DNA of 64,000 nt from an uncultured bacterium (lineage in GTDB: Bacteria; Krumholzibacteriota; Krumholzibacteriia; JACNKJ01): contig CAVOFT010000001.1 in the NCBI GenBank assembly GCA_963695095.1, forward strand, positions 1,760,001-1,824,000. Reading direction: 5' to 3'. This document shows, piece by piece, positions 16,401-19,400 of the stretch. Made by a program: the position numbers. Positions within the stretch are counted from its first letter, which is position 1, and every line of letters begins with the position of its first letter.

Positions 16401-19400
16401 GGCGGCCCTGCTGGCCCTGCTCGGCGAGGGCGAGGCCCGCGCGTGAGGCCGCTGCCGCGCATCCGCGAATCCGGACTCCGCGAGCTGCCCAGGCGCCTCG
16501 TCTGGCTTGGCCTGGCCCTGGCGCTGGCCGAACGCCTGCTGGCCTGGCTCCTGCTCGGCGCCGGCCTGCCCACGCACGGCTTCGAATCCGGGGTGATCGC
16601 GGACAACCTGCTCGCCGGGCGCGGCTACACGATGCCCTTCTACTACTGCGACGTGCCGATCCGCTCCTTCATCCCGCCGCTCTATCCGCTGCTGATGGCG
16701 GCCGCCAAGGCGCTCAGCCCGCACTGGGTGCTCCTGCTCCAGGGCCTGCAAATCGCAGCCTCCCTGCTCAACGCCCTGCTCGCCGGCGAGATCGCGGGCC
16801 GCTGGTTCGGTCGCCGCGCGATGATCGGCAGCTTCTTCCTCGTCGCGCTCTACCCGGTCTTCGCGGTCTACTCGCTGGCCATCTTCTCGACCACGCTGAT
16901 CATGACCTGGGTGCTCGTCCTGGTGAACCTGATGGATCGCGTCGAGGCCCCGCATCCCCTGCGCATGGGCGGCCTGACCGGACTCTTCCACGGCCTGGCC
17001 ATTCTCACCTCGCCGCCGCTGGGCCTGCTCGGCCTGCTCTTCCTGTTCCGGCTCTGGCGCTTCCGGCACCCGGGGCGGCTGCGGCGCACCCTGGCCTACC
17101 TGGCGGTGCTCGCCGCCGTCTGGAGCCCCTGGGTCCTGCGCAATGCGCGCGTCCATGGCACGCTCCTGCTGACCAGCACGAACGGCGGCTTCAACTTCCT
17201 GGTCGGCAACAACCCGCATGCGGGCGGCTACACCTGGGGCGAGTTCACCCTGGAGGACAGGTTCTGGCAGGTGGTGGAGCGCGAGCGCGTGGACACGCTG
17301 CCCGAGCCGGCCCTCGAGCGCTGGTTCTACCGCCGCGCCCTGGGCTACATCGCCGCCGATCCCTGGCACTACCTGGGCTTCTTCCTGCAGAAGGTCTACT
17401 ACTTCTGGTGGTGCCGCGACGTCACGCGCTTCGGCTATCCGACGCCCTGGAGCGTCGCCTACCAGTCGCTCTACGCCTTCCTGTTGCCATTCGTTCTGCT
17501 GGGCCTGCTGCTCTGGGCCCGCCGCTGGCGCCGGCTCTTTCCGGCCTACTTCCTGTTCGCCCAGTACAGTCTGCTCTACGGGCTCTACTTCGTGCGCAGC
17601 CGCTTCCGGTGGGAGATCGAGCCCCTGCTCCTGGTGTTCGCCGTGGCCGGCTGGCTGGAGATCCTGCGCCGCTTGCGCGGCGGCGCCCGCGCAGAGGAGG
17701 AGTGGTGATCCATCCCATGCTCTGGGCCGCGCTCGCGAGCGGGCTGGCGGCCCAGCTCTACAAGGTGCTCGTCGAGAGTCTGCGCGAGCGGCGCCTGAAG
17801 CTCTACCGCTTCTTCGAAACCGGCGGCATGCCCAGCAGCCACACGGCCGTGGTGACCAGCCTCGCCGTCGGCGCCTGGCGGGTCAACGGCTTCGACTCGC
17901 CCTTGTTCGCGATCACGGCCGTCTTCAGCCTCTACTTCATCCTGGAGGCCACCGGTCTGCGCCAGGAGGTGGGCAAGCAGGCGCGGGTGCTCAACGAGAT
18001 CCTCGACGAGCTGATCGACACCCGCCATTTCGCCCGCGAGCGCACCCGCGAGCTGCTCGGCCACACCTGGAGCGAGGTGGGCTGGGGCTTCTTGCTCGGC
18101 CTGGTGGTGACCGTGCTGCTGGTCCGACCCTGAACGCCGCCGATTCCCGAGCAGGAAATCCTTGACGGTTTTCGGACCTCGCCGCACCATCCGCAAGCGG
18201 AGACCCCGACAGCCCTGCGCGCCATCCGAGCGGGTCCTCCGGGCGCCCGGACTCAGGAGGTAATCGGATGAAGGTACTGGCCGTCGTCAATCAGAAGGGG
18301 GGCTGCGGCAAGACCACCCTGGCGATCCACCTTGCCGCCGCCTGGGCCAAGGAGGGCTTCCGGGTCCTGCTCGTGGACCTCGATCCCCAGGGTCATGCCT
18401 CGCTCGGCCTCGGCGTCGAAGTCGAGAACTGCGCTCGCGGCTCCTACGATCTGCTCAGCGATCCCGCGGCGACGCTGGCCGAGATGGCCGTGCCGGTCCA
18501 GGCCCATCTCGACCTGGTGCCCGGCGGCATCATCCTCTCGGCCGCCGAGCAGGAGCTGGCCCGCCAGCCCGGACGGGAGAGCCGTCTGCGCAGCGCACTC
18601 CTGCGCCACGGGGGCGCCTACGACTGGGTCGTGGTGGATACGGCGCCTGCGGTGGGGCTGCTGACCTTCAATGCCCTGGTGGCGGCCGATGCCCTGCTCG
18701 TGCCCGTCGACAGCAGCACCTTCACCCTGCACGGCCTGCAGAAGATTCTCGAGACCCTGGAAGTGCTCGAAGAGGAAACGCGCCGCCGGCCGGCCTGCTT
18801 CGTGGCGGCCAACCAGTTCGACCCGCGCACGCTCTTCAGCCGCGAGCTCTATGCCGAGCTGGCGGCCAACAGCCGGATCCGTCTGCTCGAAACGCGCGTG
18901 CGCAGCAGCGTCCGCGTCAAGATGGCCGCCGCCGGCGGCGTGCCCGTCATGGACCTGGCGCAGCCGGGGCCCGTCCGCCTGGACTTCGAGAACCTGGCCG
19001 AGGAGCTGTGGAACCATCTCACCGAGCTCAGCCTGGAGCGGGACCGCGAACTGGAGTCCCTGCTCTTCGGCCCCCAGCTCTGCGAGGAGGGCATCCGCTT
19101 CCGCCTGCGCGCCCCCGAGGCGCGCGAGGTCTATCTCACCGGCAGCTTCAACCACTGGAATCCCGGCGGCATCCCGCTCGCGCCGCGACCCGGGGCCAGC
19201 GGCGCCTGGGAGGTCGTGCTGCCCCTGACGCCGGGCAACTACGAGTACCGCTACATCGTCGACGGCCGGTGGGTGACCGATCCCAGCCATCAGCAGACCC
19301 GCCTCAACGACCTGGGCGTGGAGAACTCGCTGCTCGTCGTCGGCGGCTAGCGCGAAGGGGCGCCGCATGAGGCCGGCGAGCGGAGAGCGACGCCAGAGCA

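Follow-up and report, generated by a model that had tools for sequence, protein, structure and literature searches.

A ParA-type ATPase fused to an AMPK-beta-type CBM48 module, and its conserved partner genes, in Krumholzibacteriota

The window analyzed here is a stretch of 64,000 nucleotides from an uncultured member of the phylum Krumholzibacteriota. The genes of interest lie on its forward strand, and the annotated features of the locus are as follows:

17702..18133, + strand: DUF212 (divergent PAP2 family) membrane protein gene (Pfam PF02681, 3e-36)
18268..19350, + strand: gene A, ParA-CBM48 fusion, ATG start, 360 aa
18268..18957, + strand: gene A residues 1-230, ParA/Soj-like deviant Walker A ATPase domain (AAA_31 and PDB matches)
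18958..19065, + strand: gene A residues 231-266, variable linker (lowest conservation)
19066..19350, + strand: gene A residues 267-360 plus stop codon, CBM48/AMPK-beta-type module (AMPK1_CBM, CBM_48)
19367..20069, + strand: gene B, predicted catalytically dead ParA/FleN-like protein (GC3 plot, and a three-frame reading against the intact B of relatives)
20066..20389, + strand: gene C, 107-aa protein with a predicted alpha-beta5-alpha fold (GC3, and conservation 3' of B)

The ATG of gene A is preceded by an AGGAGG motif 7 nt upstream, and the GC3 of its sense frame is 0.93–0.95. An antisense ORF of 382 aa (18253-19401) was dismissed as a shadow frame of this 71% G+C DNA, and promoter and terminator scans of 17400-20700 returned nothing, a result that is uninformative for DNA of such composition. 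The initial annotation had described gene A as a fusion of ParA and CBM48, and this architecture is borne out, as the ORF is as described and the Pfam values were reproduced. Residues 1-171 match AAA_31 (2.3e-43) and residues 4-226 match CbiA (1.2e-19); the ATPase motif is KGGCGKT (within NQKGGCGKTT), and the key residues are K10, K15, D39 and D124. Sequence searches of the PDB matched ParA (8ray_B) to residues 2-228 at 1.1e-36 and Soj (1wcv) at 2e-33, while no NCBIfam model reached its curated cut-off, the best being ParA_partition (117 bits vs 180). The C-terminal part is matched by AMPK1_CBM (residues 284-358, 3.5e-13, 50.0 bits vs a cut-off of 26.8) and by CBM_48 (residues 267-335, 4.4e-11, 43.4 bits vs 22.4). 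Judged by its sequence, gene A encodes an active-type, ParA/Soj-like ATPase followed by an AMPK-beta-type CBM48, with a variable linker between the two.

Gene A opens a conserved A-B-C module, usually with DUF212 upstream, and the order A-B-C is maintained among related loci. It had been proposed that the built-in carbohydrate module takes the place of a separate adaptor protein, but this proved wrong, as two conserved partner genes (B and C) follow the fusion. In this assembly gene B is frameshifted: its N-terminus is read in the frame of 19367 and the remainder in the frame of 19434-20069, the change of frame falling somewhere within 19434-19490. Among public sequencing runs, none contained more than 0.11 of the sampled words. 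The N-terminal peptide of B (NHIRSISWLFLS in this assembly) is conserved, with S23 invariant and L22 kept in at least 90% of sequences, and model confidence is low in this part. Gene B has no Walker A motif and no match in Pfam or NCBIfam, but a profile built from 27 B proteins hits FleN (5j1j, 6.9e-8), and the AF2 model (pLDDT 79.7) retrieves ParA, MinD, FleN, FlhG or BcsQ as all of its top Foldseek matches. Sequence and model together identify B as a ParA-like protein without a P-loop, which is predicted to be unable to bind ATP in the usual way. A complex prediction for A (residues 1-262) with B, using the intact pair of locus L003, gave a score of 0.00, a value that counts neither way.

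The ATG of gene C overlaps the stop codon of gene B (ATGA). At 19 of 29 other loci a C gene could be aligned downstream of B, and tBLASTn found matches at six more. Pfam, NCBIfam and PDB sequence searches gave no match for C, and its AF2 model (pLDDT 87.8) found no Foldseek match at an E value of 0.001 or better; the best VIA matches, to YjbR (Z 8.8) and frataxin-like proteins (Z 7.6–8.1), were near background. The DUF212 gene has a GTG start at 17702/17705, preceded by GGAGGAG. At 69 of 80 related loci, and at loci of families f3-f9, it precedes the fusion, and DUF212 genes occur in 111 of the 121 genomes of the phylum, mostly as two paralogues. The idea that DUF212 is an obligatory partner was ruled out by its absence from four fusion-bearing genomes of family f2. 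Some of the contexts in which the fusion is found point to cell-envelope polysaccharide or division genes.

No variation in K10, K15, D39 and D124 is seen among 27 orthologues of gene A or among all 71 representatives of the wider family. Position 216, a candidate DNA-binding residue that may be equivalent to R189 of Soj, is only partly conserved, being a lysine or arginine in 50 of these 71. Among 37 orthologues from the phylum, mean pairwise identity is 59% for the CBM, 54% for the ATPase and 33% for the linker; W297, W335, G350 and N353 are invariant in these, and R328 is conserved in at least 90%. The positions of W297, R328, W335 and G350 are kept in 66–70 of the 71 family representatives. 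The gene A CBM is matched by CBM chains of AMPK-beta (1e-9), and in the alignment to AMPK beta1 these four residues correspond to W100, K126, W133 and G147. According to excerpts of PMC6274970, W100G and K126Q abolish glycogen binding by AMPK, and W133L and G147R weaken it. The glycogen-contact residues of the AMPK-beta CBM are therefore conserved in gene A, by this alignment, and binding to alpha-glucan is predicted.

Of 121 genomes of the phylum, the source genome among them, 89 carry the fusion (87 at whole length and two cut by contig ends); the earlier report had given 40 out of 51. Its retention through most of the phylum is confirmed. The remaining 32 genomes gave plain ParA matches only, covering about residues 2-228 of the query. 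The claim of a single copy per genome held in every case but one, as G078 has two copies. In a word-based search, 14 of 28 matches were homologues carrying both ParA and CBM48 families; 15 of 22 had been reported at first. The fusion is also present in several phyla beyond Krumholzibacteriota; when genome contigs were scanned with an alignment of the phylum's CBM, the best 80 matches were labeled as the same phylum or unclassified only, and metagenome loci carrying the fusion were retrieved with an alignment of five sequences. Each genome also encodes a separate Soj-like ParA that is 33–39% identical to gene A, and across 153 genome pairs the divergence of gene A follows that of Soj, with Spearman coefficients of 0.82 (ATPase) and 0.79 (CBM).

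A ParA-CBM system has already been described by Li, Burroughs and Aravind (bioRxiv, Oct 2026), and the section of the preprint devoted to it (bioRxiv 10.64898/2026.10.19.760177) predicts a role in immunity. According to that section, the CBM would be a lectin sensor for carbohydrates that derive from, or are depleted by, infection, and would set off an invader-limiting multimerization of ParA, with the dead ParA and the small protein providing further sensing. Several features of the wider family fit such a proposal. Its members occur sporadically in several phyla; the sequences of B and C change quickly (14–21% and 11–27% identity between families, vs about 45% for A); and among the 71 representatives the CBM is somewhat less conserved than the ATPase (34% vs 41% identity), so that the rapid CBM divergence on which the authors place emphasis holds weakly there. 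Within Krumholzibacteriota the picture differs. The module is present in 89 of 121 genomes with a Soj-like pattern of divergence, its CBM is not fast-evolving and has invariant sugar-contact residues, and the neighborhood is stable and of a housekeeping kind (DUF212, SBP_bac_5, NamZ, ClpB and peptidases). Searches with PADLOC-DB 2.0 gave only a 33-residue P-loop match for A (2.7e-4) and none for B, C or DUF212 of locus L038; the whole-length fusion was found in none of at least 5000 matching plasmid records and in no phage; and no annotated fusion context contained effector domains or defence genes. Given its occurrence, its Soj-tracking divergence, its stable synteny, a CBM as conserved as the ATPase, and the lack of a PADLOC, plasmid or phage signal, the module in this phylum looks like a vertically inherited housekeeping gene, and an immune role appears quite unlikely.

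What the CBM might bind is indicated by neighboring genes in two lineages, which also speak against immunity. Directly downstream of the module in G029 lie two GT4/GT5 synthase-like genes, a relative of GH57 branching enzymes (NCBIfam, 3e-133), an alpha-glucan phosphorylase and a GH77 gene, and in G078 a GT5 fragment at the same site is a decayed remnant of such a glycogen cluster. Within the phylum this adjacency is limited to one family, that is, one of 80 loci plus the one remnant. In other lineages, 14 of the 26 metagenome fusion loci that were informative (at least 2.5 kb of upstream sequence) have a same-strand GH57 gene (Pfam, 4e-66) upstream of the fusion. The distance is 0.6–0.85 kb in 13 of them and 1.5 kb in L220, and these copies are 51–71% identical to the query from L168. 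Of the glycogen-related genes of the source genome, GlgA, GH57, GH13 and phosphorylase were found again, GlgA (PF08323) being split over two frames. Across the phylum, GlgA is present in 78 of the 89 genomes with the fusion vs 17 of the 32 without it, counts that are uncorrected for shared ancestry. As a phylum-wide marker of glycogen metabolism, GH57 proved imperfect, as it occurs in 82 of 121 genomes and comprises several subfamilies.

A connection between gene A and alpha-glucan is supported by these observations, but an association with self-made glycogen is not obligatory. The fusion is retained in seven genomes that have neither GlgA nor GH57. In the five of these that were tested (G078, G022, G028, G111 and G035, of which G078 is closed and has the two fusion copies), no GH13, glycogen phosphorylase or GH77 was detected, and no GlgC above cut-off, while the same searches found alpha-glucan enzymes in five out of five control genomes of the phylum. 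The CBM residues are unchanged in genomes without alpha-glucan enzymes, so that in those genomes the ligand may be something other than glycogen made by the cell, and this persistence would fit the non-self ligand of an immune system. The initial annotation had predicted a dedicated system for glycogen granules. The link to alpha-glucan is supported and positioning is plausible; the dedication to glycogen is not established, since the fusion occurs in the seven genomes lacking GlgA and GH57 and is missing from the 17 GlgA-bearing genomes counted above.

In AMPK a CBM of this type makes the kinase a sensor of glycogen, as described in excerpts of PMC2642990 and PMC6274970, and the CBM of gene A could likewise report the status of a storage or envelope glucan, with the ParA switch and the FleN-like B signaling to division or polysaccharide synthesis and no cargo being moved. 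The profile of B is closest to the regulators FleN and FlhG, the fusion and a B-like gene lie directly 5' of mraZ-mraW-PBP in two metagenome loci, and Wzy_C and GT4 genes come after the module in families f4 and f6. Such contexts differ among lineages, however, and none is compelling; A, B and C have no output or DNA-binding domain, and the genomes without alpha-glucan enzymes are equally awkward for a sensor. We regard this explanation as unlikely.

Another Pfam match of gene A is to the BcsQ family (1.4e-12), which brings to mind a cytoplasmic MinD/ParA-like ATPase that cooperates with a membrane partner, as BcsQ or split BY-kinases do, in the export or import of an alpha-glucan-like polymer across the envelope. 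The commonest gene order among the metagenome loci begins with an Alginate_exp-like outer-membrane porin and GH57, continues with a protein that spans the membrane once and has a beta-rich outer domain, and ends with the fusion; Wza/Wzz genes lie 3' in three loci, a DUF212/PAP2-like membrane protein is found upstream in this phylum, and the second copy in G078 has a B-like protein fused to an NrfD-like membrane domain. The CBM should nevertheless be cytoplasmic, since it is fused to an ATPase without a signal or membrane segment, the conserved core lacks a synthase or transporter gene, and the four f2 genomes retain the fusion and have no DUF212. Handling of a polymer across the envelope is, on balance, highly improbable.

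The explanation we prefer, and hold tentatively, is that A is a ParA/Soj-type ATP switch equipped with a glucan module which, together with B and C, couples a cytoplasmic alpha-glucan polymer to the ParA cycle, and that the system is vertically inherited. By analogy with its family, A would form an ATP sandwich dimer through the signature lysine K10. Such a dimer would carry two CBM48 modules on flexible linkers and could bind polyvalent glycogen particles by avidity, a proposal that rests on the conserved W297/R328/W335/G350 site. The dimer may at the same time be tethered to a matrix, of which the nucleoid, by analogy with Soj, is the likeliest, and a candidate basic residue for this is only partly conserved. 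B, with a basic and hydrophobic N-terminal peptide that is probably flexible, and C might act in a role like that of ParB, McdB or MinE, triggering ATP hydrolysis or capping A, and this step would reset the cycle and spread or release the glucan. A narrower version, in which A-B-C is a dedicated machine for the partition or positioning of glycogen particles, with A gripping the cargo through CBM48 and the dead ParA with its N-terminal activating peptide replacing ParB or McdB, is possible but doubtful.

ParA/MinD ATPases organize DNA, carboxysomes, chemoreceptor arrays and division sites, and we know of no system of this type for polysaccharide stores. If the narrower version is true, A-B-C would be the first known positioning machine for a polysaccharide store. 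A ParA with its own glycogen-binding module, retained through a phylum and present in several more, makes the active placement or sensing of glycogen by bacteria directly testable. When the literature was searched for a link between ParA-type proteins and glycogen granules or the binding of glycogen, the preprint of Li, Burroughs and Aravind was all that came up. The evidence favors a housekeeping, alpha-glucan-linked role over the immune one, the sole reading in print, because of the vertical inheritance, the conserved sugar site and the GH57 and glycogen-gene neighbors. Either outcome would widen the known functions of ParA switches.

The closest known counterpart is that ParA-CBM system (named ConB5), which, as far as the relevant section of the preprint describes it, also consists of a ParA with a C-terminal AMPK1_CBM. 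Its second variant adds a rapidly evolving inactive ParA and a small inactive protein after the core gene, which is the A-B-C order seen here, with B as the second, inactive ParA. The third protein is described there as an inactive restriction-endonuclease fold, whereas the model of C best resembles YjbR/frataxin-like sandwiches, at borderline Z scores; an endonuclease fold did not emerge from the fold searches with C, though it may yet apply. The same section stresses rapid CBM divergence and sporadic spread, whereas in this phylum the CBM is conserved and inheritance looks vertical. McdA/McdB and ParABS-type systems likewise have a small ParA-type ATPase, an adjacent dedicated partner and a non-DNA cargo, and McdA (6noo) matches A at 4.7e-15. 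In the McdAB system, McdB reportedly binds the cargo and McdA only the nucleoid, whereas here the CBM sits on the ATPase and the predicted partner is a dead ParA paralogue. The AMPK beta-subunit has the same CBM48 subfamily and glycogen-contact residues, coupled to a kinase rather than to a ParA ATPase. FleN/FlhG and MinD are closest to B by profile and fold, although B has no Walker A motif. The ATPase domain of A has its closest sequence relatives in Soj/ParA proteins, which share its size and motifs; unlike them, A carries a CBM and has no ParB partner.

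The initial annotation had described a ParA-type ATPase fused to a CBM48 module in one open reading frame, and this is borne out: a 360-residue ORF (gene A) was recovered and its Pfam domains were found again. Reading all three frames alongside a GC3 frame plot revealed two further genes, B and C, directly 3' of it.

18268–19350, + strand: gene A, ParA/Soj-like ATPase with a C-terminal CBM48 of AMPK-beta type; ATG start, 360 residues, AGGAGG 7 nt upstream.
20066–20389, + strand: gene C, 107 aa; its ATG overlaps the stop codon of gene B.

The G+C content of the window is 71%, and since third-position G+C in the sense frame of gene A is 0.93–0.95, a longer antisense ORF was taken to be a shadow frame. 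Pfam matches to the N-terminal part of gene A are AAA_31 (2.3e-43, residues 1–171) and CbiA (1.2e-19, 4–226), and those to the C-terminal part are AMPK1_CBM (3.5e-13, 284–358) and CBM_48 (4.4e-11, 267–335). No NCBIfam model exceeded its curated cut-off, the top one being ParA_partition (117 bits against 180). Solved ParA-type relatives are the ParA family protein 8ray_B (1.1e-36), Soj 1wcv (2e-33) and McdA 6noo (4.7e-15), while the tail matches AMPK-beta CBM chains at about 1e-8. When aligned with the latter domain, W297, R328, W335, L349, G350 and N353 of gene A correspond to beta1 W100, K126, W133, L146, G147 and N150. In AMPK, according to the review PMC6274970, glycogen binding is lost with W100G or K126Q and reduced with W133L or G147R. 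W297, W335, G350 and N353 are invariant among 37 orthologues, with R328 kept in at least 90%, and among 71 representatives of the wider family the contact positions are kept in 70 (W), 69 (K/R), 68 (W) and 66 (G). By its sequence, gene A is an active ParA switch whose alpha-glucan site looks functional.

Gene B begins 17 nt past the gene A stop. In relatives it is a single ORF of 232–328 aa with a conserved N-terminal peptide, for which an alignment of the B-like ORFs of 27 loci gives the consensus R..LRD.SHLFLS (S invariant, the L before S in at least 90%); beyond the peptide, the sequences of relatives read as ParA-fold-like, without a P-loop. In the window, the peptide (NHIRSISWLFLS) is read in the 19367 frame and the remainder in that of 19434–20069, which places a frameshift within 19434–19490 relative to intact orthologues. 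This means either that the organism's gene B is a pseudogene or that the assembly has an indel error. Outside the window, the GlgA (PF08323) match of the same genome (G000:C1:1991745-1992480) likewise switches frame, at profile position 174/175. Finding a second gene of interest frameshifted is a hint that the assembly contains indel errors. A Pfam search with gene B returned no matches. Because a profile built from the 27 sequences matched FleN (6.9e-8), the AF2 model has a pLDDT of 79.7 (50–60 over the first 30 residues), and the ten top Foldseek matches of the model were ParA, FleN, FlhG, MinD and BcsQ (probability 0.94–1.00, TM 0.33–0.51), gene B is taken to be a ParA/MinD-type protein that is catalytically dead, its N-terminal peptide being probably flexible. 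Beside the second of the two fusion copies in the closed genome G078 is a 646-aa B-like ORF (L033:7003-8940, - strand), the C-terminal part of which matches the NrfD polytopic membrane family (9e-19), suggesting a membrane-anchored form of gene B.

Gene C gave no matches in Pfam, NCBIfam or PDB sequence searches. Its model (pLDDT 87.8) has the order helix, five strands, helix, and Foldseek found no match to it at E ≤0.001; a full structural scan returned YjbR (Z 8.8), a Mediator Med17 domain (8.6) and frataxin/CyaY (7.6–8.1), all of them near background according to the tool. Of 29 other loci, 19 had a similar ORF that could be aligned, and tblastn added six. In the four closest genomes, identity is 44–57% for gene B and 64–79% for gene C.

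The fusion is present in 89 of 121 Krumholzibacteriota genomes (87 whole-length, two cut by contig ends), and the remaining 32 have plain ParA matches only. Atlas clusters combining ParA with AMPK1_CBM have Myxococcota, Acidobacteriota, Omnitrophota, Thermodesulfobacteriota or Planctomycetota as their commonest phylum. In an exhaustive HMMER search, 72 of the best 150 cluster representatives were 335–400 aa long, and 71 of these align over both domains; longer two-stretch forms are also numerous among the 150. Members with a named source belong to Candidatus Eisenbacteria and Candidatus Glassbacteria, and every one is annotated as AAA family ATPase or chromosome partitioning protein. Four very large proteins (P0032, P0035, P0090 and P0136; 1337–1812 aa) carry 7 to 18 CBM48-like stretches resembling that of gene A.

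A full-text search retrieved one paper pairing AMPK1_CBM with ParA (Li, Burroughs and Aravind, bioRxiv 10.64898/2026.10.19.760177, 22 October 2026), the accessible text of which reads this "ParA-CBM system" as immune. Such a role is favoured by the fast evolution of genes B and C, and by the CBM of the wider family being somewhat less conserved than the ATPase (34.1% versus 40.7%, 71 representatives). Within the phylum, however, the CBM of gene A is not fast-evolving, mean pairwise identity among 37 non-redundant orthologues being 59.4% for the CBM, 54.3% for the ATPase and 33.3% for the linker. Across 18 genomes (153 pairs), identity is 68.6% for Soj-like ParA, 55.8% for the gene A ATPase and 59.6% for its CBM, and gene A divergence tracks that of Soj (Spearman 0.82 and 0.79, the 153 pairs being mutually non-independent), the pattern expected of vertical inheritance. 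The neighbourhood also counts against immunity, as it is stable and ordinary: usually DUF212, A, B, C, then an M10/M57-like lipoprotein peptidase, ClpB and a C25 peptidase, with SBP_bac_5, NamZ and MurNAc-recycling-type genes on the opposite side. Families f4 and f6 instead have a Wzy_C membrane protein after the module. PADLOC gave only a 33-residue P-loop match for gene A and none for B or C, at least 5000 plasmid records matched but not one of them covers 80% of gene A, and phage records yielded just three weak partial CBM matches. An immune function is, for this phylum, the less likely reading. Two neighbours may be mentioned here. A 171-aa SLOG/LDcluster4 protein (15931–16446, + strand; Pfam 3.4e-42) is matched by two PADLOC models, PsyrA (8.5e-9) and ShosA, in their SLOG part, and a 1595-aa protein (23426–28213, + strand) combines Peptidase_C25, FG-GAP and FlgD_ig; genes for C25 peptidases are found again, a few genes 3' of the module, in several families of the phylum.

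Several gene contexts connect the module with alpha-glucans. In genome G029 it is directly followed by two GT4/GT5 glycosyltransferases (top NCBIfam match a GT4-type glycogen synthase, under cut-off), a GH57 protein with a branching-enzyme C-terminal domain (GH57 branching enzymes 3e-133, under the equivalog cut-off), an alpha-glucan phosphorylase and GH77. G078 belongs to the same family; there, A-B-C of copy 1 precedes a standalone 111-aa CBM48 protein (L147:1666-1998) and a 165-aa ORF (L147:2067-2561) holding only an N-terminal starch-synthase (GT5) fragment, 62% identical to the G029 synthase over 103 residues; this locus reads as a remnant of a G029-type cluster. On metagenome contigs, ParA and CBM share one frame in 57 of the 80 best relatives, ranked by a five-sequence CBM alignment. 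A GH57 gene (Pfam 4e-66) lies upstream on the same strand in 14 of the 26 such fusion loci with at least 2.5 kb upstream, at 0.6–0.85 kb in 13 and 1.5 kb in L220, with a single-pass membrane protein in between; these GH57 copies are 51–71% identical to the query copy. As a lead only, the nearest Atlas clusters to the GH57-linked fusion are from Thermodesulfobacteriota and Omnitrophota. In this lineage the fusion is followed by a small protein whose N-terminal half is extremely Lys/Arg-rich and whose C-terminal domain is compact (L168:8832-9410; 21 of 57 metagenome fusion loci; no family match). Of the 89 genomes that carry the fusion, 78 have GlgA (PF08323), versus 17 of the 32 that do not, as raw counts uncorrected for shared ancestry.

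Other observations point elsewhere. A glycogen cluster adjoins the module on one contig only among 80 loci of the phylum. Eleven fusion-bearing genomes lack a GlgA match, and seven of these also lack GH57 (G022, G028, G035, G059, G078, G111 and G115). Five of the seven were searched further and gave no GH13, glycogen phosphorylase or GH77, and no GlgC over cut-off (generic nucleotidyltransferases only), while the GH13 and phosphorylase searches matched in all five GlgA-positive control genomes of the phylum. The enzyme-less genomes nevertheless keep the invariant sugar-contact residues in their fusion, and each of them has 2–6 AMPK1_CBM matches in proteins otherwise free of Pfam domains. Since genomes without any alpha-glucan enzyme keep the fusion, self-made glycogen is not the sole possible ligand. 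In G078, where the GT5 fragment was the only alpha-glucan enzyme sequence detected, AMPK1_CBM/CBM48-only proteins of 681 aa (L144:3829-5871, - strand), 185 aa (L144:2967-3521, - strand) and 945 aa (L145:1166-4000, + strand) are encoded, and similar genes recur in other genomes without these enzymes. The division and export contexts also point away from glycogen: at L199:7131-14202 and L174:7038-14703, the fusion and a B-like gene immediately precede a Zn-ribbon protein, MraZ, a STAS protein, MraW and a penicillin-binding protein, the start of a division/cell-wall cluster, and Wza/Wzz export genes lie downstream in three metagenome loci.

Taken together, the module appears to be a vertically inherited set of gene A, a dead ParA paralogue and a small protein, and its most likely function would be to couple cytoplasmic alpha-glucan to the ParA ATP cycle. 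A gene A dimer could bind glycogen bivalently and also bind a matrix, and the gene B peptide, with gene C, would reset it. The outcome may be either particle positioning, as the initial annotation proposed for glycogen granules, or sensing of glucan status. That A-B-C is a dedicated glycogen-particle partition machine seems to us possible, though less likely than not.

Literature searches linking ParA-like proteins to glycogen granules or to glycogen binding returned nothing beyond the preprint (10.64898/2026.10.19.760177), which already contains the architecture, its three-gene form included. As far as its accessible text describes them, one variant has in addition, upstream, a membrane protein that spans the membrane once and carries an outer CBM, and A-B-C of the window corresponds to the second variant, except that the REase fold given there for the third protein could not be confirmed for gene C. 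Beyond the doubt over that fold, the present analysis adds the retention of the module in genomes without alpha-glucan enzymes, evidence of housekeeping-type inheritance, the conserved sugar site, and the GH57 and glycogen-cluster neighbours.
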